NCBI GenBank assembly: GCA_964588165.1
Contig: CAZPMS010000002.1
Span: forward strand, 15,951-79,950
Source: an uncultured Gammaproteobacteria bacterium
Lineage (GTDB): Bacteria > Patescibacteriota > Patescibacteriia > UBA1558 > UBA10009
DNA: 64,000 nt
Reading direction: 5' to 3'
Within the stretch, counting starts at the first letter, position 1. Every line of letters begins with the position of its first letter. The notes under the pieces are model-generated. The model had not been told where the DNA came from and did no database searches. It was given only the letters and a program-made list of their open reading frames with translations. Both the position numbers and the translations under genes were made by a program. Below are positions 6,259 through 63,341 of this stretch, piece after piece.

Positions 6259-6427
6259 TGACATTCATTTTTGCACGCAATAGCGTTAGAATTTTCTGGC
6301 GCTATTTTATTATTACAAAAAAAGATCTCCAATATTAGAAAGTTTTTTGCTCGCCCTGCGTCTGTTTACCGGCAAGGCAGTTAGTTTTTAATTTGAATAA
6401 AAGAGTAAAATACGTATAATATAATAT

Positions 6428-14868: not shown

Positions 14869-15975
14869 TTGAATATGAAAATATTAGGTATAGAAACATC
14901 ATGTGATGAAAGCGCAGCTGCGCTGCTTCACGTATCACATAACACATATCACTTATCCAGTAATATTGTTTTATCGCAGATAGATATTCATAAAAAATAT
15001 GGTGGCATTGTGCCAGAGGTGGCAGCACGGAAACATGTTGAGTCAATTATTCCTGTTATTGAAGAATCCATTGGTAAGCAAAAACCGGATTTAATTGCTG
15101 TAACCTATGGTCCTGGTTTAATTACTTCGTTACAGGTTGGTGTGCAAACAGCTAAGACCTTGGCTTACATTTGGCAGGTTCCTTTAGTTGGGGTAAATCA
15201 TTTGGAGGCTCATCTTTGGAGCTTTATTTTGAATGAAGAAAGACGAGTGAAGAATGACGTCACACGTCACACGTCACACGTCAAACAATTTCCGGCAGTT
15301 GGTCTAATCGTATCAGGCGGGCATACGGAAATGGTTTTAGTAAAGGGAATTGGCTCGCCTCGATTCCCGTCCCGACTCGGTCGATCCGAGGCAAACGACG
15401 AAGCGGGCAAGTATAAATTGATTGGCAGAACCAGAGACGATGCAGTAGGCGAAGCTTTTGATAAAGTGTCTAAGATGTTAGAAACTGGTTACCCGGGCGG
15501 ACCGATTATTAGCCACTTTGCCAAAAAAGGCGATCCAGCAAGTATAGATTTTCCTAGACCGATGATAGATAGTGACGATTTTGATTTTTCTTTTTCCGGT
15601 TTAAAAACAGCAGTTAAGTATCATCTTAAACAAATGCCTAAAACCGGCAATTTAAGCCAGGCTTTTATAAATAATGTTTGTGCCAGTTTCCAAAAAGCGG
15701 TAATTGATGTTTTAGTTAGTAAAACCATTAAAGCTACAGAAAAATATAAGGCCAAATCAATTATTTTGGGCGGGGGAGTTAGTGCCAATGAAAATTTAAT
15801 CCATAATCTATTATCCATAACCAAAAAAAGGGAGATAGACTTTTATTATCCAGAATTAAAATTTACCGGTGATAATGCGGCTATGGTGGCTTTGGTAGGC
15901 TTCTTAAATAAAAAATCTGCCAAGAAAAATAATTGGCAGAAGTTGGTGGCCGAAGCAAATCTTAAGTTGGTTTAG
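14869..15975 (+). CDS. tsaD: tRNA N6-adenosine threonylcarbamoyltransferase TsaD (Kae1/YgjD family) carrying two in-frame repeat-encoded insertions.
   Basis: MKILGIETSCDESAAAL...VNHLEAH...SGGHTEMV...DDAVGEAFDKV...GYPGGP. Extra segments ERRVKNDVTRHTSHVKQ and SPRFPSRLGRSEANDEAG are encoded by repeats at 15255-15285 and 15352-15412. Confidence 0.9.
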   Translation: MNMKILGIETSCDESAAALLHVSHNTYHLSSNIVLSQIDIHKKYGGIVPEVAARKHVESIIPVIEESIGKQKPDLIAVTYGPGLITSLQVGVQTAKTLAYIWQVPLVGVNHLEAHLWSFILNEERRVKNDVTRHTSHVKQFPAVGLIVSGGHTEMVLVKGIGSPRFPSRLGRSEANDEAGKYKLIGRTRDDAVGEAFDKVSKMLETGYPGGPIISHFAKKGDPASIDFPRPMIDSDDFDFSFSGLKTAVKYHLKQMPKTGNLSQAFINNVCASFQKAVIDVLVSKTIKATEKYKAKSIILGGGVSANENLIHNLLSITKKREIDFYYPELKFTGDNAAMVALVGFLNKKSAKKNNWQKLVAEANLKLV

Positions 15976-16367
15976 ATAACCCGCTTATCATCAACTTTTT
16001 TTACTGATTTACTTTTTTTAGAGGTAAGTTTTTTTATTAAATCAGAAAAAAGTAAGTTGTCTTTACTCTTATCAAGCAGAAACAGAATACCGATTAAAAA
16101 CAGCGGGCCGGTAATAATAAAATAAGCAATAAAGTCAGCATCACCTTTGGTTAGAATAATATAAAAGATGCCCAAGGCAATAAAACCAAGCTTGCCAACT
16201 ATTTGATTTTTCCAAGCCAGGATGGTTATCAGCAAAATAATTGCCCAAACTCCGCTTTCTATTAAGGTTTCCCAAGAAAGGCCATGTGAAAGGAAAACAA
16301 AGCTCATCCAAAAGAGAGTGATTAAAGCGGATAATATTCTTGGGATCCAATAAAGAAATTTTTTCAT
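15972..16367 (-). CDS. Hypothetical integral membrane protein
   Basis: Four hydrophobic helices with a K-rich C-terminus. Confidence 0.4.
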   Translation of the reverse strand: MKKFLYWIPRILSALITLFWMSFVFLSHGLSWETLIESGVWAIILLITILAWKNQIVGKLGFIALGIFYIILTKGDADFIAYFIITGPLFLIGILFLLDKSKDNLLFSDLIKKLTSKKSKSVKKVDDKRVI

Positions 16368-16369
16368 TA

Positions 16370-16738
16370 CTAATTAGCAGTTATAAAATAAACCACCAAA
16401 CCGGCTAAAACTAAAATTCCTAAAATAATTATTATGGATTTTTTTAGTTTTTTCTCCGGTTCTGTTAGGTCATTCCAAGTTCGGCGGTTTTGTTTCCATT
16501 TGCTTTTATTAGCTAGCCCAATAACCAAAAAAACTACTCCTAAATAAAATAAGCTATTTAAGCTGTATTCTTTGGTAAATAAGGAAGGCACACCAATTAA
16601 GGTCCAAATTAAACCAATTACAAACAGAGAATAATAGTCGGTTGGAGTTTTATATTTCCTTTTTATGAAAATAAATATTGCCAAAAATACCAATAGCACG
16701 ATACCGACCGAAATCATCAGCCAAGGGATTGTTTCCAT
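16370..16738 (-). CDS. Hypothetical integral membrane protein
   Basis: Several TM helices. It is tightly packed against its neighbours. Confidence 0.4.
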   Translation of the reverse strand: METIPWLMISVGIVLLVFLAIFIFIKRKYKTPTDYYSLFVIGLIWTLIGVPSLFTKEYSLNSLFYLGVVFLVIGLANKSKWKQNRRTWNDLTEPEKKLKKSIIIILGILVLAGLVVYFITAN

Positions 16739-16744
16739 ATTATT

Positions 16745-17062
16745 TTATTTTAAGTTAATTAATACTAAGCCAATTGCAATAACAATTATACCGGCAATTT
16801 GGATAGGGGCAATGGTTTCTTTAAAGCCAAAGTAGCCCACTATGGTAACTACAATTACCGAAATAGCAATCCATAAAATATTGGTAATGGCGGCGCCTTC
16901 GTATTTTAAAGAAAGGGCAAAAACAAAACCGGCGCCGCCAAACAGCAAAACTGTTAAAATAAGCAATAGTGGATTTTTGCTAACACTGTAGAATTTAGCA
17001 GATAAAACACCGCCTAAATCAAGTAGAGTAATTATAGAAATGTAATACCAAAAGGGGCTCAT
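16745..17062 (-). CDS. Small 4-TM membrane protein, SMR/DMT-like
   Basis: 105 aa. C-terminal segment GFKETIAPIQIAGIIVIAIGLVLINL resembles TM4 of EmrE-like transporters. Confidence 0.45.
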   Translation of the reverse strand: MSPFWYYISIITLLDLGGVLSAKFYSVSKNPLLLILTVLLFGGAGFVFALSLKYEGAAITNILWIAISVIVVTIVGYFGFKETIAPIQIAGIIVIAIGLVLINLK

Positions 17063-17092
17063 TAATGTATCTTAACATATTATTAACTTTTT

Positions 17093-17767
17093 TTAATCAT
17101 TTTGGGGCATAGATTCACAATTGCATGCACAAGGGAACTTGGATTGGCTTGGGTAATGAGCTTGTGCAAACATTTGCCTGGTGGCCTCTTTAAATTTTTG
17201 GTCCATATATTTTATTGGGCATTCAAAATTTCCATTGGTTGAAATACCCAAATGTAAATGATATTCGCCATAAGGAGTTATGGCGGCATCGCCCAAATAA
17301 TCCCCTTTGTTAATCTTATCGCCAATTTTAACTTGCACATTTGTGAGTCCTGCATAATCCATTTTAAAATTACCTCTTTTAACGTCGATAATATCTCCGG
17401 CGCCTTCATCCTCGCCTACTTTTACAAATAATATTTCTCCATCTGCCGCGGCGTAAATTTTAGAATCAGGTTTTAACTCAAAATCAATTGCATTATGGAG
17501 CCTTCCAATTTCCCATTGATCTGCACAAAAAGGTACTGCTCCCCAAAACTTTGATGAAAAATCATCCATATCAAAAGGCAATGTTAATACTGGTGTGTTT
17601 GAGCCTGCCATTTTTGGATATTCTTTATTTGTTAAGCAAACATCTTCCGGTGATTTTGTCTGAATTATATCATTAATATCTTTATTAGATGATTCCTTCT
17701 TTGAATCATTTAGCGCCGAACATCCAGCCAGAAAAATAAAAATTACTAGCAATATAACTTTTTTCAT
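17093..17767 (-). CDS. Lipoprotein M23-family metallopeptidase
   Basis: Lipobox LAGC. HNAIDF (HxxxD) and YHLHLGIS (HxH) M23 motifs. Cys-rich C-terminus. Confidence 0.8.
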   Translation of the reverse strand: MKKVILLVIFIFLAGCSALNDSKKESSNKDINDIIQTKSPEDVCLTNKEYPKMAGSNTPVLTLPFDMDDFSSKFWGAVPFCADQWEIGRLHNAIDFELKPDSKIYAAADGEILFVKVGEDEGAGDIIDVKRGNFKMDYAGLTNVQVKIGDKINKGDYLGDAAITPYGEYHLHLGISTNGNFECPIKYMDQKFKEATRQMFAQAHYPSQSKFPCACNCESMPQND

Positions 17768-17804
17768 AATATTTATTTAATAATCAATACTATATAATTT
17801 TTTT

Positions 17805-18089
17805 CTACTCATCGGATTTATCAATTACAAAATCAATATCAGTTAAAGCAACTACTTTATGATATACATTAGGGCCTACCTTAAACATTATAGGCGCTTT
17901 AACTACTTGAGTTTCGTCACTAATAGTTAATTCAATTTTTCCTTTGACTAAATAAATAATCTCGCGATCCTTATGAGTATGATTTGCGCCGATAGTCCCT
18001 TTTTTCCTGGTGATGAAACTTGATTTACCACAGTCATAGATAATGCCTCTTTCATCTGATTTGATAACTTTAATTTTGTGTAGTTCCAT
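17805..18089 (-). CDS. Small cupin-fold protein
   Basis: 94 aa with a GANHTHKDREIIYLVKGK cupin-like core. Confidence 0.45.
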   Translation of the reverse strand: MELHKIKVIKSDERGIIYDCGKSSFITRKKGTIGANHTHKDREIIYLVKGKIELTISDETQVVKAPIMFKVGPNVYHKVVALTDIDFVIDKSDE

Positions 18090-18238
18090 ATTATATGCTA
18101 TTTATTTAACCTATTTATTATATTTTAACATATTTTTTGCTCTTTTGTATTAATATCTTGACGTGGATTAATTAAACCGCTATAGTAAAATATAAAAAAA
18201 TTTGATCAACTGAACCTTGTAAGTAGGAGGATATCGAG

Positions 18239-19021
18239 ATGGATGCAACAAATCCAGTTGGATCTGACGGCCGCACGTATCATTTGCAGACGCGCAAAGG
18301 TGATCTTGCTGAACATTGTTTACTTGTGGGTTCGCCCGAGCGAGCGAAGATGGTCGCAGAGACTATGTTTGAGTCTGCTAAACTTGTTGGCGATCATCGA
18401 GGCCTTAAGACGTTCACCGGTATGGTGAATAATGTGCCAATATCGGTGGTTACAACTGGTATGGGTAGCGCGTCGATGGCCATTGTTCTGCCCGAAGCAT
18501 TCTACTCGGGTGCCAAACGTTTTATCCGTGTCGGTTCATGTTCAACGCTCTGGCAAGAGCCGAGTCCTGGCGATTCAGCTATCTGTTCCGGTGCGGTGCG
18601 CTTGGATGGTGCCAGCGAGAACTGGGCGCCGATTGAGTTCCCGGCTGTGCCTGATTTCCGGGTTGTGAGTGCCATGGTGGAGGCGGCAGAGTTGCTTTCT
18701 CTTCCATATCATGTCGGCATTGGCGCCACAACCACCTGCTTTAATGAGGGGCAGGCAAGGCCTGATAGCTCGGGCTACCTCCCACCTCGGCTTAAGATGA
18801 TGCATGATGAGCTCGTCCAGCGTGGTGTTCTTTTCTACTCAATGGAAGAGGCGACACTGTTCGTATGGTGTTCTACCCATGGCAGGGATTTGTGGGCCGG
18901 TGCAGTAGACGCTATCTTTGGAAACCGCCACACCAACGAACTCAAGGTCTGCGGTGAGGAGGAGGCAGCCAAGATTGCTATTCGCACCCTACTCATTATC
19001 AGCGAGCGCTACCCGTTGTAA
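18239..19021 (+). CDS. Nucleoside phosphorylase, PNP/UDP family (DeoD-type purine nucleoside or uridine phosphorylase-like). High-GC gene.
   Basis: LLVGSPERAKMVAETMFESAKLVGDHRGLKTFTGMVNNVPISVVTTGMGSASMAIVLPE and FIRVGSCSTL resemble DeoD GDPLRAKYIAE...RGMLGFTG and IIRVGSCG. RBS aggagg. GC is about 57%, against about 35% for the host. Confidence 0.8.
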   Translation: MDATNPVGSDGRTYHLQTRKGDLAEHCLLVGSPERAKMVAETMFESAKLVGDHRGLKTFTGMVNNVPISVVTTGMGSASMAIVLPEAFYSGAKRFIRVGSCSTLWQEPSPGDSAICSGAVRLDGASENWAPIEFPAVPDFRVVSAMVEAAELLSLPYHVGIGATTTCFNEGQARPDSSGYLPPRLKMMHDELVQRGVLFYSMEEATLFVWCSTHGRDLWAGAVDAIFGNRHTNELKVCGEEEAAKIAIRTLLIISERYPL

Positions 19022-19077
19022 CTCAGAGACGAGGGCGTCTGTTCATTCAACCAATATGTTTCATAATTGTTGCATGG

Positions 19078-19107
19078 AAGGCTCAATATTTTATTGAGTC
19101 TTTTTTA
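19078..19107 (+). terminator. Intrinsic terminator after the nucleoside phosphorylase gene.
   Basis: ggctcaatattttattgagtc hairpin plus tttttt. Confidence 0.6.
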
Positions 19108-19110
19108 TAC

Positions 19111-19161
19111 TTAAATAAAAAACCCGCTAATCTTGACAAAATTTAAAAAATGTGATATTTT
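19111..19161 (+). promoter_or_regulatory. Promoter cassette copy 1: 'cttaaataaaaaacc', 'ctaat', TTGACA (19133-19138), 17-bp spacer, TATTTT.
   Basis: The same module recurs at 19911-19963, and partly at 22065-22105. Confidence 0.5.
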
Positions 19162-19218
19162 ATGTAGTTATAAGTTTTAACACTAACGTTCTTTGCCATA
19201 AACCTAAGGGAGGTTCGC

Positions 19219-19872
19219 ATGCTTTGCAAGAAGAGAATGGTTGCGGACCTACTTTTTGCGGTCCAAATCATTTGTACGCTTGTCTTCGGCATAAAGCAAT
19301 TCATAAGAATGCTCACTGTTACTGAAGGGGTGAGTGTAAGTATGTTCTGGAGCTGGGAATTTTTCTTGGCTATCAATTTGATTTTAGTGCTTAAAGCACA
19401 CCGTAACCAACCGAGTAGGGCCACCCGCCAAACCATAATTAGTTATATCACCTGGATTGCCATGATCACTTTGGATTTAGGTGTTATGTATGTTAAGGAT
19501 GTGGGGGTGTGGAATGCTCGCGATAGTTGGTCAGCAATTTTGGTAGCAGTAGGCATTATAGCTACCTTGATAGTTGGCCGTTACAAGCACCTGTCCATTA
19601 CCGATCCAATGATAAAAACCTCTTTCGCAGTATTTTTTAAAGTTGTACCTCAAATCATTTGGGCTTACAATATAACTCTGATGGGCGGAGCAGGTTTGGC
19701 CGGGGCAGCTGTTATTGCCGGACATATAACTATTTTATCCCGAATCGGGCAAGTTTTGTTTATCATCGAGGAAGCAGGTTGGGATAGAAATAGAATTGGA
19801 GTTGCTATTAGTGAAATATCCAACGAGGTTAGTTGGCTGGTAGTAACTGTTGTTTGGGTTATTTACACATAA
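19219..19872 (+). CDS. 7-TM membrane protein, possibly a PnuC-like nucleoside transporter (low confidence). Elevated GC.
   Basis: RBS aagggagg. Seven hydrophobic segments. FWSWEF is an aromatic motif. Its position next to a nucleoside phosphorylase is the only other support. Confidence 0.4.
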   Translation: MLCKKRMVADLLFAVQIICTLVFGIKQFIRMLTVTEGVSVSMFWSWEFFLAINLILVLKAHRNQPSRATRQTIISYITWIAMITLDLGVMYVKDVGVWNARDSWSAILVAVGIIATLIVGRYKHLSITDPMIKTSFAVFFKVVPQIIWAYNITLMGGAGLAGAAVIAGHITILSRIGQVLFIIEEAGWDRNRIGVAISEISNEVSWLVVTVVWVIYT

Positions 19873-19910
19873 AAAGGCCCTTCTTCCATGAAGTTTGGGT
19901 CTTTTTTAAT

Positions 19911-19963
19911 TCTTAAATAAAAACCTACTAATACTTGACAAAATATTGAATATATGCTATCAT
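19911..19963 (+). promoter_or_regulatory. Promoter cassette copy 2: TTGACA 19935-19940, 17-bp spacer, TATCAT 19958-19963.
   Basis: 'cttaaataaaaacctactaatacttgacaaaat' parallels copy 1. Confidence 0.5.
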
Positions 19964-20055
19964 ATTATGATGCTTGAAATAGGTTCAAGTATCAAAGATG
20001 TCCCACTACCGACCACAGCCAAGATGCTGGGCGGAAAGAAGAAAGGGATACACCC

Positions 20056-20715
20056 ATGATCAGGATTTCGATTGATCCGAAAACGGTTGAGGGGCTTATA
20101 GGCTCCAACAAAGCCGAGATGAAGCGGTATGGTACGGAAGGTAATAATTATGTAGAGATTTGTGGGCTACATTTTTCCCGCGGATCGTGTGATGGATCTA
20201 TTGATCCCTGGACGAAGGATATTCATGAATCTCTGTCGGAAGTTTTGCCACTTCCTGAAGATCTTCCTGTACAACGCATCTCGGTGCATGTCCAGTTTAT
20301 CGCCCATCCCAGACGAGACAGGGGGGCTTATAAACTGGGAACGGCATCGGCAGAACTTGAAGTGAACACTCATCTCAATTCTAACGGCAATCATGAACTC
20401 AAGATGATTGCTGAAGGAGGCAAGCCAAATGAGATGCTCACCCATCTAAAGGAGCTGGAGCTGGCCATTAAGACTGGCAATCTGGATGAGGTAATCATGA
20501 CTCATTCTTTCGAGAATGATCAGGTTACGGAAGCCGATTTCAAGGCACCTCCGGGAATGTTCAGGATCATTCATGAACACAAGGACGGCGAACTGGAAAT
20601 CGTGGCCGATTTCGAAAGGCTCAATTTCGCCAAAACTTCATTAAGTGCTCTTCGTGAGCAGAATGAAGATGACTTTTTCACCCTTTGTGATAACAAAGGA
20701 AAAATAGAGGAGTAA
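20056..20715 (+). CDS. Hypothetical protein with elevated GC
   Basis: 219 aa with no recognisable motifs. GC is about 48%. It has its own promoter and an 85-nt leader, and a terminator at about 20748-20785. Confidence 0.5.
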   Translation: MIRISIDPKTVEGLIGSNKAEMKRYGTEGNNYVEICGLHFSRGSCDGSIDPWTKDIHESLSEVLPLPEDLPVQRISVHVQFIAHPRRDRGAYKLGTASAELEVNTHLNSNGNHELKMIAEGGKPNEMLTHLKELELAIKTGNLDEVIMTHSFENDQVTEADFKAPPGMFRIIHEHKDGELEIVADFERLNFAKTSLSALREQNEDDFFTLCDNKGKIEE

Positions 20716-20826
20716 TCCTCACATTCAAATTTATAAACATGGGTCACCAGCAACACCGGTGGCCCTTTTCTTTTTTAATAATTTACTCACTTGATTAATT
20801 TATAGTTATTAAGTATTATCGAATTT

Positions 20827-21264
20827 ATGAAGGAATATACAACCAACAGTCCTAAAGAAACTAAAAAATTGGCTACAGAAATTGCCAGCCAATTTAAAGG
20901 CGTAAGAGTCATTGGTTTAGTAGGTGAACTTGGTGCTGGGAAAACGGTTTTTGTTCAAGGCTTGGCAGAGGCTATGGGAATCACTGAAGTGGTTAATAGC
21001 CCCACTTTTGTTTTAATGAAGAATTACGAAGTCCATGAGCCAGAATCCACAGTCCATAATCTTGTTCATGTTGATGCTTATCGTTTGAATGATAGCCAGG
21101 AACTTAATGATATTGGTTTAGAAGAATATTTAAATAAAAAAAATACCATTGTAGTAATTGAATGGGCAGATAAAGTTAAAGATTTATTGCCAGTAGATTC
21201 AGTGATGATTGAATTTAAGGAAGAGACAGAAAATAAAAGGGTAATTCAAGTAAAAAAAGCTTGA
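20827..21264 (+). CDS. tsaE: tRNA threonylcarbamoyladenosine biosynthesis ATPase TsaE (YjeE)
   Basis: P-loop GELGAGKT. SPTF motif. VHVDAYRL. Confidence 0.85.
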   Translation: MKEYTTNSPKETKKLATEIASQFKGVRVIGLVGELGAGKTVFVQGLAEAMGITEVVNSPTFVLMKNYEVHEPESTVHNLVHVDAYRLNDSQELNDIGLEEYLNKKNTIVVIEWADKVKDLLPVDSVMIEFKEETENKRVIQVKKA

Positions 21265-23199: not shown

Positions 23200-26100
23200 A
23201 TGAAAGAATTATCTAAATCATATCAGCCAGATAAACACGAAAGCTCAATTTACCAAAAATGGGAAGAGTCCGGGTTTTTTAATCCCGATAATTTGCCAGG
23301 CAAGCGCAAGAAAGTTTTTTCTGTTAGCCTGCCGCCGCCCAATGCTACCGGCATTTTGCATATTGGCCATGCTTCGATGCTGGCTTACCAAGATATTATG
23401 GTCCGGTACCATAGGCTAAAAGGTGATAAAACTTTGTGGTTGCCCGGAACAGACCACGCAGCCATTGCCACTCAAACGGTGGTAGAAAAAAAATTAATCA
23501 AGGAAGAAAAAAAGCGCAAAGAAGATATTGGCCGAGAAGAGTTCAGAAAAAGAATAGATAAATATGTAGAAGAATCCCGTGGCACCATCCGTAAACAGCT
23601 CCGGGCCATGGGCTCATCTTTAGATTGGTCTAGAGAAAGATTTACCTTAGATAAAGATTTATCATTAGCAGTTAGAACAGCTTTTGCGAAAATGTATAAT
23701 GATGGACTAATTTATAGAGGTTATCGGATTGTTAATTGGTGCCCGCACTGTAAATCCACTTTAGCTGATGACGAAGTTGAGTATAAGGAACAAAAGGCCC
23801 CGTTTTATTATTTTAAATACGGTCCGGTGGTTATTGGTACAGCCAGACCAGAAACTAAATTTTCTGATAAAGTAATTATTGTTCATCCTAAAGATAAGCG
23901 TTTTAAAGATATCGCAGGTAAGGAATTTGAAGTGGAATGGATTAACGGCAAGATTAAAGCAAAAGTTATTACCGATGAAGCAGCTGATATGGAAATGGGA
24001 ACCGGGGCCATGACCATTACTCCGGCCCATAGTTTTGTAGATTTTGATTTGGCTCAAAAATATAAATTAAAGGTAGAAGAAATAATTGATAAAGATGGAA
24101 ATTTAACAGAAGTTGCTGGTGAATTTGCTGGTCAACCAGCTGCTAAAGCCAGAGAGAAAATTGTTAATAAGCTGGCCAAGAAAGGCTTAGTTGATAAAAT
24201 TGATGAAGATTACGTCCATAATTTATCTCTTTGTTACCGGTGTAAAACGCCTATTGAACCGTTGCCTTCTAAGCAGTGGTTTGTTGATGTAAATAAAAAG
24301 ATTCCAAAAAAAGGCAAGTCATTAAAGCAACTGGCCTCCGATGTAGTCAAAAATGGTGATATAAAAATAATTCCTGATAAATTCAACAAAACTTATTTCC
24401 AGTGGATGGATAATTTAAGAGATTGGTGTATTAGCCGCCAAATTTGGTATGGACATCAAATTCCGGTTTGGTATAGGGACGCAAAAGCGCAAAAGCGCAA
24501 AAGCGCAAAAAAGGAGCAAGATATTATTGTACCTAAAGAAATAACTGAAATCAATCTAATGCGCCACGGTTTAACTGATTGGAACAAAGACCAAAAAATT
24601 CAGGGCAGAACTAACGTGCCTCTAGATGAATCCAGCGTAGATAAAATTAATAAAATAATGCCTCAGTTAAGGTCAGAAAATTTTGATATAATTATTAGCT
24701 CACCCTTAATGAGAGCCAAACAAACGGCTGAAATTGTAAATAAACAATTAAATCTGCCTTTAATAGAAGATGAATTATTGGTTGAAAGAAATTATGGTAA
24801 ATTTGAAGGGAAAAAAGTAAATGATATAAAAAATGACCATCCTGATTATGCCAAGGATAAAATTAATTATGATATCCCAGGAGATGATGAAGAAACCTAC
24901 CAGGAGATTGCTCAAAGGCTGAAGAAGTTCATTAAACAAGTAAGTAAAGAATATCCTAACAAGAAAATTTTAGTTATATGCCACAATGCAGTTATCAGGA
25001 CTTTCAAGATGATAATAAAGGATTCCTCACCTAAGGAACTTTCTGGCTATAAACCTAGTTTTGACAAGTTGGTTAAATATCAAATTTTAGATGGTAACTA
25101 TAACCTAAAAGGTGTTGAGCAAGATCCTGACACTTTAGATACCTGGTTTTCATCTTCACTTTGGACATTTAGTACTCTTGGCTGGCCAGATAAAACTGAC
25201 GATCTTAAGGCTTATCATCCAACCAGTGTTATGGAAACCGGTTATGACATTTTATTTTTTTGGGTGGCCAGAATGATACTTATGTCCGAATACCTTTTAG
25301 GCCAGAAACCTTTTGAAACAGTTTACCTCCACGGCTTGGTTAAAGATAAAGAAGGCAGGAAGATGTCAAAGTCGCTTGGCAATGGCATTGATCCAATAGC
25401 CATGATTGATAAGTTTGGCACTGATGCTTTGCGGTTGGCTATGATTGTAGGAGCCAGTGCCGGTAATGACATCAGGCTTTACGAAGAAAAGATAGCCGGC
25501 TATAGGAACTTTGTTAATAAACTTTGGAACATCAGCCGCTACATATTATCTACTGTTGGACAAGTTAAACCAATTGAAAAATTGCCAGAAGCAAAAACTT
25601 TAGCTGATAAATGGATTCTTTTAGAATTTAATCAAATCGTAGAATCAACCACTGGTAATATTGAACAGTTTAAGTTCTCTCAAGCCGGTGAAGAGCTTTA
25701 TGAATTTACTTGGTCTAAACTGGCCGATTGGTATTTGGAAATCGCCAAGGTTGAAGAGGGAAAAGATGAGATCCTTTTATACATTTTAGAAAAGCTACTT
25801 ATTTTATGGCATCCCTTTTGTCCGTTTATTACAGAAGTTATTTGGGAGATATTTAAGACAGATAAGCTATTGATGATTAAAGAATGGCCGGAAATAAAGA
25901 AACAAGATATAAAAAACAAGATACAAGATGAATTTGAAAAAGTTCAAGAGATTGTTTCAGCTATCAGGAACACCAGGGCAGAACATCTGGCTAATCCCAA
26001 AAAAGTTTATGGTTGTTCTATAAAAACTTCAAAGAAAAAAGTGATTGAAGAGAATAAAAATATAATTGAAGCTTTGGCCAAAATTAAAATTATTCCTAAG

Positions 26101-26334
26101 GCCACTGGCGTTGCTATTAATCTTGCTTGGGCTGACATGATTTTAGATATTAAGGAAAATAGGGAAGTGGCCAAAAATAAAGCTAAAGAAACTGTAAATT
26201 TAGAACGTTATATCCAAATCCAAGAAGCAAAATTAAGGAATAAAGATTTTACTAAAAAGGCTCCACCTAAAGTGGTGGAGGAAGAAAAGGAGAAATTATC
26301 GCAAGCAAAAGAAAAGTTAGCCAAATTAAAATAG
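23200..26334 (+). CDS. valS: Valyl-tRNA synthetase carrying an inserted histidine-phosphatase (PGAM-like) domain.
   Basis: HIGH motif (PPPNATGILHIGHA). WCISRQIWYGHQIPVWY. KMSKS. C-terminal coiled coil. About 213 extra aa lie between PVWY and DPDTLDTWFSS. They contain LMRHGLTDWN (RHG), GKFEG and ICHNAVIR, the catalytic motifs of the histidine phosphatase superfamily. Confidence 0.9.
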   Translation: MKELSKSYQPDKHESSIYQKWEESGFFNPDNLPGKRKKVFSVSLPPPNATGILHIGHASMLAYQDIMVRYHRLKGDKTLWLPGTDHAAIATQTVVEKKLIKEEKKRKEDIGREEFRKRIDKYVEESRGTIRKQLRAMGSSLDWSRERFTLDKDLSLAVRTAFAKMYNDGLIYRGYRIVNWCPHCKSTLADDEVEYKEQKAPFYYFKYGPVVIGTARPETKFSDKVIIVHPKDKRFKDIAGKEFEVEWINGKIKAKVITDEAADMEMGTGAMTITPAHSFVDFDLAQKYKLKVEEIIDKDGNLTEVAGEFAGQPAAKAREKIVNKLAKKGLVDKIDEDYVHNLSLCYRCKTPIEPLPSKQWFVDVNKKIPKKGKSLKQLASDVVKNGDIKIIPDKFNKTYFQWMDNLRDWCISRQIWYGHQIPVWYRDAKAQKRKSAKKEQDIIVPKEITEINLMRHGLTDWNKDQKIQGRTNVPLDESSVDKINKIMPQLRSENFDIIISSPLMRAKQTAEIVNKQLNLPLIEDELLVERNYGKFEGKKVNDIKNDHPDYAKDKINYDIPGDDEETYQEIAQRLKKFIKQVSKEYPNKKILVICHNAVIRTFKMIIKDSSPKELSGYKPSFDKLVKYQILDGNYNLKGVEQDPDTLDTWFSSSLWTFSTLGWPDKTDDLKAYHPTSVMETGYDILFFWVARMILMSEYLLGQKPFETVYLHGLVKDKEGRKMSKSLGNGIDPIAMIDKFGTDALRLAMIVGASAGNDIRLYEEKIAGYRNFVNKLWNISRYILSTVGQVKPIEKLPEAKTLADKWILLEFNQIVESTTGNIEQFKFSQAGEELYEFTWSKLADWYLEIAKVEEGKDEILLYILEKLLILWHPFCPFITEVIWEIFKTDKLLMIKEWPEIKKQDIKNKIQDEFEKVQEIVSAIRNTRAEHLANPKKVYGCSIKTSKKKVIEENKNIIEALAKIKIIPKATGVAINLAWADMILDIKENREVAKNKAKETVNLERYIQIQEAKLRNKDFTKKAPPKVVEEEKEKLSQAKEKLAKLK

Positions 26335-32998: not shown

Positions 32999-33254
32999 AA
33001 TAAAAAAAATCTTCTAGCCTTCTCGAGCCGTGCTCGACATGAAAGCCCTCCCGGACCCTCTAAATTACGGGAGGTTAGCTTATGAGGGTCGCTTGGGATT
33101 ATAGTTTATTGCTTTATTTTTGTCAATATTACTAATTTCACTAAGGCTCATAGATGTTACACTAATAACGCACTAATATTTGTGCGTTATCTGCGGGTAA
33201 TTAGTGAGCATTAGCGCATTTGTGAACTATCAGTGATTATCATATAATTAAAAT

Positions 33255-43673: not shown

Positions 43674-44462
43674 TTATGGTTGGTACAGTTTGTTAGCTCG
43701 GTGGCAATCTTCTAGGTTACCAAGGTCAAAGCGGTTTTTAATTTCAAAACCCTGGATCGGATGTTTCTGTTCTACCAGCCATTGGATAAAGTGGGCGTAG
43801 CCAGTTTTTGGATTTTCTCGGGTAAACTTTGCAAACAAAGGCAAAGTGGATTTTTTGAGAATAAAGATTGAAGGAAAAGCCTTAAGAGTTTTGGGCTCAA
43901 CGGGTTTTTCTTGAAAATCAATCAAATATCCACCTTCAAAAATCAGATTGCCACGTTTGCGCATCATTTCCAATGAAGATTCCTGATAAAAGGCGACAAT
44001 GTCATGTTCAGTCTGGCTGTTTAGAGCCAAGAGCCCGGAAATATCGCCATTAAACAAAGTGTCGCCGGCAATTACCAAGATATCATCATCAATTTCGGTC
44101 TGGCTAATGGCCAAATTTATAGCTGCGCAGCTTTCCAAGCGGGTTTCGTTGGTTAGTTTTCCATCACAAATCAAATTGCTTAAAGGGAAACCGAATTGTT
44201 TGGCCCATTGCTGGAAGAATTCCAAAAAAGCTTGATTGGTTACTACATAGATGTTGTTTACCTCAACACCAAGTTTGGTAAGTTTGTTGATGGAATGTTC
44301 AAGCGCCGGCGTTCCTTTAATGGGAACCAAGGCTTTGGCCACGCCAATGTTTGGTTTACTTACTTTGATTATTTCTCCAGCAAGTCGATTACTGGAATTG
44401 CTGGAAAAAATATCATCATGTATCCTGGTTCCAAAACCGCCTACTGGGAAGATTATCCTCAT
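43674..44462 (-). CDS. Sugar-phosphate nucleotidyltransferase (NTP_transferase family).
   Basis: MRIIFPVGGFGTRI (compare G-G-x-G-T-R). ...VIAGDTLF. Confidence 0.65.
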   Translation of the reverse strand: MRIIFPVGGFGTRIHDDIFSSNSSNRLAGEIIKVSKPNIGVAKALVPIKGTPALEHSINKLTKLGVEVNNIYVVTNQAFLEFFQQWAKQFGFPLSNLICDGKLTNETRLESCAAINLAISQTEIDDDILVIAGDTLFNGDISGLLALNSQTEHDIVAFYQESSLEMMRKRGNLIFEGGYLIDFQEKPVEPKTLKAFPSIFILKKSTLPLFAKFTRENPKTGYAHFIQWLVEQKHPIQGFEIKNRFDLGNLEDCHRANKLYQP

Positions 44463-50218: not shown

Positions 50219-50369
50219 TAATATTATATATTATTGGCTAATTTTAGTCAAATTAAATTTATTATTGCTAAATATTGATAACTATAGTCGGAATATATTG
50301 ACATAAATTAATATTTAATTTACAATAACTTGATTTGTACATTGGAAAACTTTCAAAAAGGAGGATAAT

Positions 50370-51244: not shown

Positions 51245-51338
51245 CTTTTTCAAAAAATTTAAGAGGTCAGTTATTGGCTTAGGCCAGGCTGGCTTTTATT
51301 ATTGATTTTTAGGAATAAGACAGCTATAATACCCAAAC

Positions 51339-56734: not shown

Positions 56735-56757
56735 TGGGAATATCGTGGTGTTCTGGC

Positions 56758-57000
56758 TCATGTAAAGAAGCCATGTTCGCCCTTGCCGTGTCCTTCACAG
56801 CTGCCATCACACCTTCCAATAATGGTGGTGCCCTGTAGGATGTCAGCGTGATAAACTATGTTGCCAGTGTTATACCAGACCGCAAACTTCATAGCGGCAT
56901 GGTTAACCCCGTCACAGCCTATGGCGATCTCCTCATGAATAGCTCTGTGGCCTTCATGCCTGACCGGAATGCCGGCGCTGTTGAAGATCCGGTAACCCAT
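56758..57000 (-). CDS. Small His/Gly/Cys-rich hypothetical protein with high GC (about 55%).
   Basis: RBS ggagg 7 nt upstream. 80 aa containing CDGSCEGHGKGEHG, a possible metal-binding segment. Confidence 0.5.
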   Translation of the reverse strand: MGYRIFNSAGIPVRHEGHRAIHEEIAIGCDGVNHAAMKFAVWYNTGNIVYHADILQGTTIIGRCDGSCEGHGKGEHGFFT

Positions 57001-57365
57001 GATCCTGCCTCCTCGTTTGGCTCACTCTGGAGCCGATTCACGAAACAAACCTATTGACTTCATCCTGTCTTGCTAGTACAACCTTTAGACCAGTTTTTTA
57101 CTTTTTTTACTTTAACTAGGCTAACTTGCTTCTAGCTTTAGGTTTGCTCCATAAATATGGAGACTGGCACATCTAAGTTAATTAAAGGGTAAATGGGTTG
57201 ACTTTTTGAAGTTTTTTTTAACTTTTTACTAATGAATTTAGTACAAATAGTTAAGCACAACTAAGGCTAACAATGAACAGGATTTAGTATAATAGCATAT
57301 ATTTAATATTTTGTCAATACAAAAAACAGCTTATTTTAGGCTGTTTTTAGATTATTTAATGATTT

Positions 57366-61967: not shown

Positions 61968-63341
61968 TTAGTTAAAGCAGACAGAGTTAAAGTAAGCGTC
62001 TCGTGCGCCGTGTACTACCGGCGATTTGCGAGCATGGAATTCCGCTCCTGCGAGTTTGCTTCCGAAAATATAGATACCGTATTTTGAAAATAGTTTGATG
62101 GTTTTTGTTCCGACCTCTGCATCAGCCACCAGCCGTTCTTCTACCACTTTGTAGACTTGCTGGACTATGCTGCCGGAGCTAATGGTTTCCATGGCATCTT
62201 GCCATTTTTTTTTGCCCATGGTTAAGCCAAGATACATCCGGCGGGCAGAAGAGCTGGCCGGATCTTTTATAACCCACTGTTTGCGTTCAAGTTCAGATAA
62301 GGCAATGTTGCCCTGACCATTTGGGAAATTAACAAAGCCGCTTTCAACCAAGCCAATGGGCACAAAGACATCATCCAATACCTGATAATCGTCTTGCAGA
62401 TACTCCCGGAAGATGGGCGAAAACTGTTCAAGACGGTAGAGGTACATCCAGACCTTGTTACCCAAAAACCTTCTAAAAAGGGGAGAAAGCACGCAGCGGT
62501 TTTGTGGGTAATTTTCTTTGAGAATGTTAAAGGCAGGGTCTCCTTCCTTGATCCTGCTTCTTAAAACTGCGGAAGGTTCACAGTTAAGCTGATCTGGCCC
62601 GATCATTTCGGCATTAAAACCACTGCCGAGCAAACACTTGTAAAGTGTTTGGAAGTTGTGCCAATCACCGTCAGTTGGGCGGGTAACCACTTTAAATGGC
62701 GTGGATTCACCGGGTAGGTTTTTGTCAGAGCACCATTCGTCAACACATTGTTTGATGATACTGGCAAAACTGCTGCCAATATCTGGACATAGTCCAAAGT
62801 CGTCGCCACAAGCGGCCTGGAAATTCATTAAGTCGCCAGCTCCAGCCGGCCGAGTGGAATTGATATCCATAACTTTAAAGCAGTCGCCGACCAATACAGC
62901 ATCTAGCCGGATAAAGGGATGAATAGTTTGGTAGCCGGGATCAGTTAATCCTTTGTCCCACTCTTCCTCAGTACACAGGCTTTTTATCAGCTCTGTATCT
63001 GGTGGATTAAGTTGCCCGGTTTTAGCCAGCCTAAATATTTCCAGTTGGGCGGCTAAAAGTTTGGGCCAGGCCCTGGCAACGGCCTTTAGCTGGCTCAGCT
63101 GTTCAGGGGTAAACTTTACCGGTTCAAGTACTGGTTGAATAACTTCTTCAACCATCTGGCCGGCGCTGGTTTCAATGATCCTAGTTGGTGAAGGATAGGG
63201 ATATCCTTTTCCGGTTAAGGCTTTAAACCTTTCCGGATGGTAGCGATACACCAAGTTGTTTTGCAGCAACTGCTGCAGCATTTCGTTAACCTGACTGTTC
63301 TTCATGGCCGATCTCCTTTTGTTTACTTGGCCTTTTTTCAA
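61968..63341 (-). CDS. Glutathionylspermidine-synthetase-like ATP-grasp protein (YgiC/YjfC family) with elevated GC (about 50%).
   Basis: IHPFIRLDAVLVGDCFKVMDINSTRPAG (compare R.D....G.K.lE.NaDTP). 457 aa. Confidence 0.55.
   Translation of the reverse strand: MKKGQVNKRRSAMKNSQVNEMLQQLLQNNLVYRYHPERFKALTGKGYPYPSPTRIIETSAGQMVEEVIQPVLEPVKFTPEQLSQLKAVARAWPKLLAAQLEIFRLAKTGQLNPPDTELIKSLCTEEEWDKGLTDPGYQTIHPFIRLDAVLVGDCFKVMDINSTRPAGAGDLMNFQAACGDDFGLCPDIGSSFASIIKQCVDEWCSDKNLPGESTPFKVVTRPTDGDWHNFQTLYKCLLGSGFNAEMIGPDQLNCEPSAVLRSRIKEGDPAFNILKENYPQNRCVLSPLFRRFLGNKVWMYLYRLEQFSPIFREYLQDDYQVLDDVFVPIGLVESGFVNFPNGQGNIALSELERKQWVIKDPASSSARRMYLGLTMGKKKWQDAMETISSGSIVQQVYKVVEERLVADAEVGTKTIKLFSKYGIYIFGSKLAGAEFHARKSPVVHGARDAYFNSVCFN

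Follow-up and report, generated by a model that had tools for sequence, protein, structure and literature searches.

How did three GC-rich genes, each with its own promoter and terminator, come to lie between tsaD and tsaE, which are adjacent to each other in related bacteria? The genes are located within positions 18090 to 20826 of a 64,000-nucleotide stretch of contig CAZPMS010000002.1 (hereafter the window; 36.7% guanine plus cytosine, GC), and they encode, in order, a nucleoside phosphorylase of the PNP/UDP family, a protein with seven transmembrane (7-TM) helices, and an orphan protein of 219 amino acids. The three open reading frames (ORFs) and their coordinates are as given in an earlier note on this DNA, which proposed that the coding sequences were acquired horizontally and are expressed from host-like signals. 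We favor, with a probability of about 0.7, the interpretation that they belong to an islet of accessory genes that have been independently acquired and are independently transcribed, situated in the tsaD-tsaE spacer; the coordinates of all of the features are listed in Table 1.

The context of the genes was compared with 100 related loci, fetched with up to 10 kb of DNA flanking tsaD or valS where the contig allowed. The relatives keep the gene order tsaD-tsaE-(hyp142-ADA)-valS-T2SSE-DUF7847, with not every gene present in every locus, and the adenosine deaminase (ADA) gene of the window is part of this conserved tsaE-valS synteny and lies outside the islet. In more than 25 of the relatives' loci the gap between tsaD and tsaE is mostly shorter than 200 nt (0–230 nt), with four larger exceptions of 0.3–1 kb. 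The earlier note had asked whether orthologs of the block occur in synteny in all relatives; we find that none of the eight genes that separate tsaD and tsaE in the window is present in the fetched flanks of either tsaD or valS. The extent originally assigned to the block was thus too small, as it forms the GC-rich part of a longer islet containing five minus-strand genes with host-like GC and the three GC-rich plus-strand genes. The host-like half (15972-18089, minus strand) encodes a DUF7670 membrane protein, small membrane proteins of 122 and 105 amino acids, an M23 peptidase with a lipoprotein-like N-terminus, and a cupin; it too is missing from the syntenic site of the relatives, and may represent an older insertion. 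In several related Patescibacteria the spacer is likewise enlarged, to 0.6–1 kb, with unrelated DNA (L036, 7285-7909, containing a minus-strand ORF; L027, 8506-9504; L021, 8328-8930; and L122, 1244-2156), and because other DNA occupies it in relatives such as L036, L027, and L021, insertions seem to recur here and to mark the region between tsaD and tsaE as a hot spot.

The composition of the three ORFs sets them apart from the remainder of the window. The phosphorylase gene has a GC content of 53.6% and a GC content at third codon positions (GC3) of 54.4%, with corresponding values of 41.7% and 42.2% for the 7-TM gene and 45.6% and 46.8% for the orphan gene; the background GC3 of the remaining 51 window ORFs is 0.308 ± 0.049. 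Earlier estimates of approximately 57%, 45%, and 48% GC captured the GC-rich pattern correctly, but the values themselves were about 2.5–3.5 points too high. When the GC3 excess is conditioned on the amino acid sequence of each protein and on the synonymous codon usage of the host, it corresponds to z = 7.0 for the phosphorylase, 5.4 for the orphan, and 2.7 for the 7-TM gene. The excess derives mainly from the use of G- over A-ending codons, the position-3 ratio G/(G+A) being 0.68, 0.47, and 0.57 in the phosphorylase, 7-TM, and orphan genes respectively, versus a background of 0.295. Two host genes that we take to be highly expressed, those for ribosomal protein S1 and Hsp20, show the opposite trend, with ratios of 0.19 and 0.24 and GC3 values of 0.27 and 0.30. 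Because the composition of the block is not that of S1 and Hsp20, and because the site is empty in the relatives, the proposal of horizontal acquisition is supported.

The terminator/promoter junctions between the genes have cores of 24–30% GC, which is the level of host intergenic DNA (30.3 ± 7.3%). The compositional jump had been placed at the ORF boundaries; the foreign-like composition overruns two of these, running approximately 50 nt beyond the phosphorylase stop codon (40.7% GC) and beginning approximately 70 nt ahead of the start codon of the orphan gene (50.7% GC, 19985-20055). The three-gene block was recovered at at least 99.98% identity from six independent assemblies of different samples, and it is thus not an assembly chimera.

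Examination of the transcription signals agrees with the earlier description in that each gene has its own promoter, a ribosome-binding site, and a terminator composed of a hairpin and a U-tract. The best three sigma-70-type matches of the region precede the start codons of the genes by 53, 58, and 93 nt, and we note that sites of this kind are found in intergenic DNA across the genome, with 41 of the 56 that have at least 10 of 12 consensus matches being intergenic. The terminator hairpins with their U-tracts are at 19077-19103, 19873-19904, and 20741-20765; all three terminator segments fold better than 200 of 200 shuffled sequences, with T1 being the only one flagged by a simple consensus terminator scan. 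The two downstream promoters share a repeated module, as had been reported, and it does not occur elsewhere in the window: the module core, TTAAATAAAAA-N(8-14)-TTGACA, is found exactly twice in 64 kb versus 0.01 occurrences expected, two occurrences were seen in none of 100 shuffles, and it was found only once in approximately 1.9 Mb of other fetched loci. The two copies are approximately 60 nt long and differ from each other by approximately 15–30%; they are present at two of the four junctions, and are absent from the outer ones (18090-18238 and 20716-20826). The twofold occurrence of the module supports the conclusion that the two downstream promoters derive from each other by local duplication. 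Riboswitches and other cis-regulatory RNAs were also sought; Rfam searches at gathering thresholds over the whole window gave a tRNA-Glu only, and at E ≤ 5 over 17900-21000 there are chance-level matches only. The leader of the orphan gene, although unusually stable, lacks homologs on which a covariation analysis could draw.

A second line of evidence that the expression signals were supplied locally comes from the flanks of the phosphorylase gene, where homology stops approximately 30 nt upstream and 40 nt downstream of the ORF. Similarity to the homologs in L016 and L018 spans positions -30 to -1 and +1 to +40, with the promoter and terminator segments lying outside; in the 40 positions following the stop codon there are 28 matches to L016 and 26 to L018, scores reached by 0 and 2 of 500 shuffles respectively. 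A conserved phosphorylase promoter was considered when the -35 boxes seemed to be in register in a multiple alignment, and was rejected since the similarity at -90 to -31 is not significant relative to shuffled sequences.

The phosphorylase matches PF01048 (PNP_UDP_1) with 80.7 bits against a gathering cut-off of 25.1 (E = 1.4e-22), and the best NCBIfam model by a wide margin is TIGR01718, uridine phosphorylase (196.2 bits, below the equivalog cut-off of 280.3), with NF008383 giving 143.2 bits, below its cut-off of 262. The best PDB relatives are uridine phosphorylases, with E-values of 1e-36 to 1e-37 over approximately 225–235 residues. In an alignment with Escherichia coli Udp (1K3F/1TGV), His8, Arg30, Arg48, Arg91, Phe162, Gln166, Arg168, Met197, Glu198, and Arg223 are identical, and Thr94 is replaced by serine; we take Arg30, Arg48, Arg91, and Thr94 of Udp to be the phosphate-binding residues, His8, Met197, and Glu198 those contacting ribose, and Phe162, Gln166, Arg168, and Arg223 those specific for uracil. 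The assignment to the PNP/UDP family therefore holds and can be made more precise, in that gene 1 is, as predicted from its sequence, a genuine uridine phosphorylase. It resembles the bacterial Udp enzymes (EC 2.4.2.3, PF01048; E. coli 1K3F, Streptococcus pyogenes 3QPB) in its domain, length, and substrate-binding residues, and in the linkage of its homologs to cdd and nucleoside transport genes, and differs from them in scoring below the NCBI equivalog cut-off, in belonging to a subclade centered on the Patescibacteria, and in being compositionally foreign to its Patescibacteria hosts.

The phosphorylase has approximately 520 homologs. Among the 120 best, all that carry names are from Patescibacteria (Magasanikbacteria, Uhrbacteria, Vogelbacteria, and Parcubacteria), with 60–83% identity; the nearest relatives are thus other Patescibacteria and not members of a distant phylum. 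Of six genomes examined, five have the phosphorylase as a stand-alone gene separated from both of its neighbors by intergenic DNA, the exception being the Uhrbacteria locus L167, in which it is immediately upstream of the cytidine deaminase gene (cdd), with stop and start codons abutting. In L168, a non-CPR-like locus (CPR, Candidate Phyla Radiation) with F420 genes, the homolog lies beside genes for a Bmp/ABC nucleoside transporter, cdd, deoC, ribokinase, nucleoside hydrolase, and ADA; this linkage to pyrimidine-nucleoside catabolism, seen in L167 and L168, is absent from the window. The contexts are otherwise wholly different between genomes. L015 (93-551) and L017 (51-509) have an IS110-type transposase fragment (DUF4372 plus Transposase_20) directly upstream of the homolog, and in L019 (3044-4576) there is a large serine recombinase approximately 3.4 kb away; these close homologs of the phosphorylase have 81% and 71% identity. 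In all five Patescibacteria contexts the GC3 of the phosphorylase exceeds that of its neighbors by 0.10–0.24, and the L168 gene shows no such excess. Patescibacteria (CPR) lack de novo nucleotide synthesis and depend on salvage, and for this reason the phosphorylase plausibly serves pyrimidine salvage and the supply of ribose-1-phosphate. A search of one literature collection found no paper linking uridine phosphorylase with the Candidate Phyla Radiation.

The product of the second gene is best understood from its predicted structure. Bacterial SemiSWEETs represent the 3-TM half of a 3+1+3 superfamily that includes cystinosin, the SWEETs, and the KDEL receptor (KDELR). The AlphaFold model of the 7-TM protein is very confident (pLDDT 95.3), its seven helices have the 3+1+3 arrangement of the PQ-loop/SWEET/KDELR superfamily, and its structural similarity to KDELR, cystinosin, and SWEET is much stronger than that to PnuC, which is not the closest structural neighbor (Foldseek TM-score 0.30). 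In the PQ-loop superfamily, the opening helix of each three-helix repeat carries a Pro-Gln hinge motif (PMC4309421). In the family of the 7-TM protein, the opening helix of the second bundle, TM5, has an invariant Pro144-Gln145, and on TM1 there is an invariant Gln16 preceded by a valine rather than a proline. The protein differs from known members of the superfamily in this Val-Gln on TM1, in a family-specific invariant E-A-G-W-D..R loop between TM6 and TM7, and at the sequence level: the family matches nothing in Pfam, including PF04193 (PQ-loop) and PF03083 (MtN3_slv), the protein has no PDB sequence match, and an hhalign comparison of the N and C halves gave a probability of only 0.1% for an internal repeat. 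There are approximately 77 homolog clusters, almost all of 210–230 amino acids and none with a Pfam domain; bacteria are known to have relatives of SWEETs with all seven helices, although such proteins are uncommon (PMC5972207).

The 7-TM protein had been viewed as a possible nucleoside permease of the PnuC type, a reading that our data do not support. PF04973 (PnuC) gives no match to it at E ≤ 0.1 or to any of 40 family members at E ≤ 5, and none of the 40 matches any other transporter hidden Markov model (HMM). Unlike PnuC genes, the 7-TM gene is not linked to NAD or nucleoside genes; it stands alone in five other genomes, with its own promoter and terminator in the one case examined, and its neighbors are unrelated genes (enolase and VanY; an amino acid ABC transporter and EF-Ts; an APH kinase and RibA; and a thioesterase). 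The PQ-loop-type fold, the Pro-Gln on TM5, and the unrelated neighbors together point to a carrier of small solutes and leave a nucleoside role unsupported, and from the structural model gene 2 most likely encodes a small-solute uniporter or proton-coupled carrier.

The third gene is the least tractable. In a word-indexed search of 5.8 billion clusters the full-length protein matched only itself, and full HMMER searches divide it into two domains, the N domain being common to a handful of proteins of 128–296 amino acids and the C domain to approximately 20 clusters of proteins of approximately 70 amino acids, one of them annotated at NCBI from a Kerfeldbacteria metagenome-assembled genome. Neither domain has a match in Pfam, NCBIfam, PADLOC, PHROG, or the PDB, so that the HMM searches suggested in the earlier note leave the protein a two-domain one with no family match; we propose that it is a cytoplasmic two-domain protein. 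An N-domain relative, P0199 (L166), is GC-rich relative to its own contig (52.6% versus 39.9%). A viral or plasmid origin was considered and rejected: PHROGs gave no match, scans of IMG/VR with the orphan and with a 7-TM profile gave none, and tblastn searches of phage and plasmid collections with a C-domain relative also gave none. The leader of the gene (19964-20060, 97 nt) contains two stable hairpins, and in the second of these the AAGGGA Shine-Dalgarno region is paired. An upstream ORF of 30 codons (19967-20059, called by JGI) ends in ATGA, its TGA overlapping the ATG of the orphan gene. The pairing of the hairpin with the Shine-Dalgarno region and the overlap of the upstream ORF with the start codon suggest that translation of the orphan is coupled to, or controlled by, the leader and upstream ORF.

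In the interpretation that we favor, the islet would have accumulated in the tsaD-tsaE spacer of a Komeilibacteria-like Patescibacterium, the three-gene block forming its GC-rich end; comparison of valyl-tRNA synthetases (ValRS) places the organism near Komeilibacteria-like Patescibacteria. The three GC-rich genes would be separate horizontal acquisitions, each consisting of approximately one ORF with 30–70 nt of flanking DNA. They would not constitute an operon, as each would be transcribed from its own sigma-70-type promoter and end at its own terminator, these signals sitting in DNA of host intergenic composition, and one or both of the downstream promoters would have arisen by local duplication of the terminator-tail/promoter module of approximately 60 nt. 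The first gene, probably drawn from a gene pool circulating among Patescibacteria, would convert uridine and phosphate to uracil and ribose-1-phosphate, and could provide a biosynthetically poor cell with both pyrimidine-base salvage and a source of pentose-phosphate carbon; the third would be expressed behind its structured leader and short upstream ORF. Such an islet resembles the small genomic islets described at intergenic hot spots in its atypical GC and codon usage, its broken synteny, and its accessory functions. It differs from classical islets in having no integrase, tRNA, or flanking repeats, in that the foreign segments are single ORFs, and in that each ORF has a separate host-like promoter and terminator, with one promoter duplicated locally.

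Several observations weigh against this interpretation. The nearest relatives are distant (tsaD no more than 60% identical), and scans of genomes and metagenomes for closer ones that would permit a true empty-site comparison gave at best 60% TsaD and 63–73% ValRS identity, so that the empty site is deduced from conserved synteny rather than from a sister strain. No mobility gene, integrase, tRNA, or target-site duplication bounds either the block or the islet; the Pfam families of genes up to 10 kb away on either side include no integrase or recombinase, and the direct and inverted repeats bounding the block or islet are AT-rich chance-level matches only. Promoters are short motifs, and the failure to detect homology among them is therefore not proof of a local origin. 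The 7-TM gene is only a marginal compositional outlier (z of 2.3–2.7). Position-3 identity between phosphorylase homologs is 0.31–0.52, and synonymous sites this close to saturation argue against very recent transfers and do not allow us to name a donor. Finally, a GC3 excess that is consistent across hosts could reflect gene-specific selection. This last point leads to an explanation in which the high GC and GC3 are intrinsic to the genes and are kept by selection on codon usage or on mRNA stability or structure, the genes being long-term residents of Patescibacteria. It can account for the elevated phosphorylase GC3 in all five Patescibacteria contexts, where GC tracks the host with an approximately constant offset, for the position-3 divergence, which argues against very recent transfer, and for 7-TM genes that exceed their neighbors in each of the five other genomes examined, including three that do not clearly belong to Patescibacteria. 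We nonetheless regard it as quite unlikely, given that S1 and Hsp20 show the opposite position-3 trend, that the genes break the conserved tsaD-tsaE pair, that contexts differ completely between genomes and include a transposase or recombinase in two, that the L168 phosphorylase has no excess, and that the unrelated orphan and its N-domain relative in L166 display the same excess.

The remaining alternatives concern what the block does and how it was assembled. That the three genes constitute one nucleoside-salvage module, in which a PnuC-like 7-TM protein imports nucleosides, the phosphorylase cleaves them, and the 219-residue protein is an accessory factor, would extend the salvage suggestion of the earlier note, and is a reading that we consider unlikely: beyond the failure of the 7-TM family to match PF04973 or other transporter models, and its occurrence beside unrelated genes, the phosphorylase homologs in five other genomes are never beside a 7-TM gene or the orphan, the full-length orphan occurs nowhere else, the ADA gene is outside the islet, and no fetched locus links the genes. 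The same note raised the prospect of an anti-phage defense locus, and PNP-family domains do act as effectors in some defense systems; a nucleotide- or nucleoside-degrading effector would fit such a locus, as would the variability of the islet and the presence of an orphan protein in it. It is barely credible here, however, as none of the three proteins matches a PADLOC family at E ≤ 1 or any PHROG, the phosphorylase is a stand-alone enzyme of 260 residues with a complete uridine-specific Udp active site whose homologs sit with cdd and nucleoside-catabolic and transport genes, and it is not accompanied by a sensor, cyclase, or receiver, the neighbors being tsaD, tsaE, cupin, and M23 peptidase genes. 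With regard to assembly, the repeated module could be imagined as an attL/attR-like site for serial insertion of promoterless single genes, analogous to an integron array, since the direct repeats are 802 nt apart and bracket exactly one ORF (the 7-TM gene), the foreign segments are ORF-sized with short flanks, and all three genes are in one orientation. We find this highly improbable in light of the absence of an integrase or recombinase nearby and of the module from the outer junctions, its lack of attC-like imperfect inverted-repeat symmetry, its near absence from other loci, and the divergence of its two copies; moreover, the shared part consists of a U-tract, an A-rich UP-like stretch, and a -35 box, as expected of a duplicated promoter.

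The favored interpretation of independent acquisitions would make the locus a clear and well-bounded case of a reduced genome gaining a salvage enzyme and a predicted transporter, through foreign single ORFs that enter an intergenic hot spot between housekeeping genes and are each made expressible by their own promoter and terminator. The evidence for it is good, but it is a fairly ordinary example and does not overturn current understanding. Of wider use are a Patescibacteria-wide clade of uridine phosphorylases that is GC-richer than its host in five of five contexts examined, a family of bacterial proteins, rare and absent from Pfam, with a very confidently modeled full-length 7-TM PQ-loop/SWEET/KDELR fold, and two uncharacterized small domains. 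From the higher GC of the phosphorylase gene, the 7-TM gene, and the N-domain relative of the orphan compared with their respective hosts, one could speculate that Patescibacteria swap single ORF-sized genes by an unrecognized cassette-type mechanism, with local terminator-promoter modules fitted to them and repeats of approximately 60 nt left as a scar or used as a recombination site, a conjecture that we consider very unlikely.

Table 1. Coordinates of the tsaD-tsaE islet, its flanking genes, and its expression signals in the window.
Feature	Coordinates	Strand	Basis or remarks
tsaD, left flank of insertion site	14869..15975	+	Pfam TsaD; adjacent to tsaE in >25 related loci
Lineage-specific 4.85-kb insertion, eight genes	15976..20826	.	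Absent between tsaD and tsaE in relatives; GC per ORF
Promoter P1 (TTGACG-17-TATAGT), uridine phosphorylase gene	18158..18186	+	Consensus scan
Uridine phosphorylase (NP-I / PNP_UDP_1 family), 260 aa	18239..19021	+	PF01048, TIGR01718, PDB matches, active-site residues
GC-richer 3' tail of phosphorylase unit, small hairpin 19027-19040	19022..19057	+	Kept in homologs L016 and L018
Intrinsic terminator T1, 12-bp hairpin and U-tract	19077..19109	+	Fold versus shuffles; consensus scan
Repeated module copy 1: terminator U-tract, CTTAAATAAAAA, CTAAT, then -35 CTTGACAAAAT through -10 (P2)	19101..19163	+	
Promoter P2 (TTGACA-17-TATTTT, with TG), 7-TM gene	19133-19161	+	Within module copy 1
7-TM membrane protein, 217 aa, PQ-loop/SWEET/KDEL-receptor-type fold	19219..19872	+	No Pfam family
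Intrinsic terminator T2	19873..19908	+	-12.1 kcal/mol, z = -3.1, 0/200 shuffles as stable
Repeated module copy 2, containing P3	19903..19965	+	
Promoter P3 (TTGACA-17-TATCAT, with TG), orphan gene	19935-19963	+	11/12 consensus match; within module copy 2
Structured GC-rich leader of orphan gene	19964..20055	+	Fold -29.7 kcal/mol, z = -4.2; no Rfam match
Two-domain protein, 219 aa; N domain ~1-150, C domain ~153-218	20056..20715	+	HMMER relatives by domain
Intrinsic terminator T3	20741..20777	+	-14.5 kcal/mol, z = -3.6, 0/200 shuffles as stable
tsaE, right flank of insertion site	20827..21264	+	PF02367 E = 1.8e-39; synteny

Some other features of the window merit comment. The promoter of tsaE (TTGATT-17-TATTAT) ends only 7 nt before its ATG, and promoters ending 5–11 nt before annotated starts are present at 20791-20826 (the tsaE promoter), 50223-50251 (minus strand), 33220-33248, 6393-6420, and 51302-51330; this proximity to the start codons suggests that leaderless mRNAs are frequent in this organism. 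Downstream of the islet, the valyl-tRNA synthetase (23200-26334, plus strand; 1044 amino acids) contains an inserted His_Phos_1 (histidine-phosphatase) domain, which is matched across in L021 and L022 only, the other related genomes aligning as two segments without the insertion.

There are also compositional outliers elsewhere. A nucleotidyl-transferase gene (PF00483) at 43674-44462 on the minus strand has a raised GC3 of 0.41 (z = 4.1). A 457-residue ORF without a Pfam domain (61968-63341, minus strand) has a GC content of 46.6% and a GC3 of 48.5% (z = 7.7, amino acid-conditioned), with a sharp GC step at both ends; it is as strong an outlier as the phosphorylase, and is probably another acquired gene. 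Lastly, an island of 52% GC (56750-57320, minus strand) lies inside an AT-rich intergenic stretch of 660 nt, and has a promoter (TTGACA-17-TATTAT) at 57317-57289 and an 80-residue ORF (56758-57000) behind a GAGGAGG ribosome-binding site. Its RNA folds with z = -4.3 and has no match in Rfam, and the island could be either a small acquired gene or an unrecognized structured RNA.

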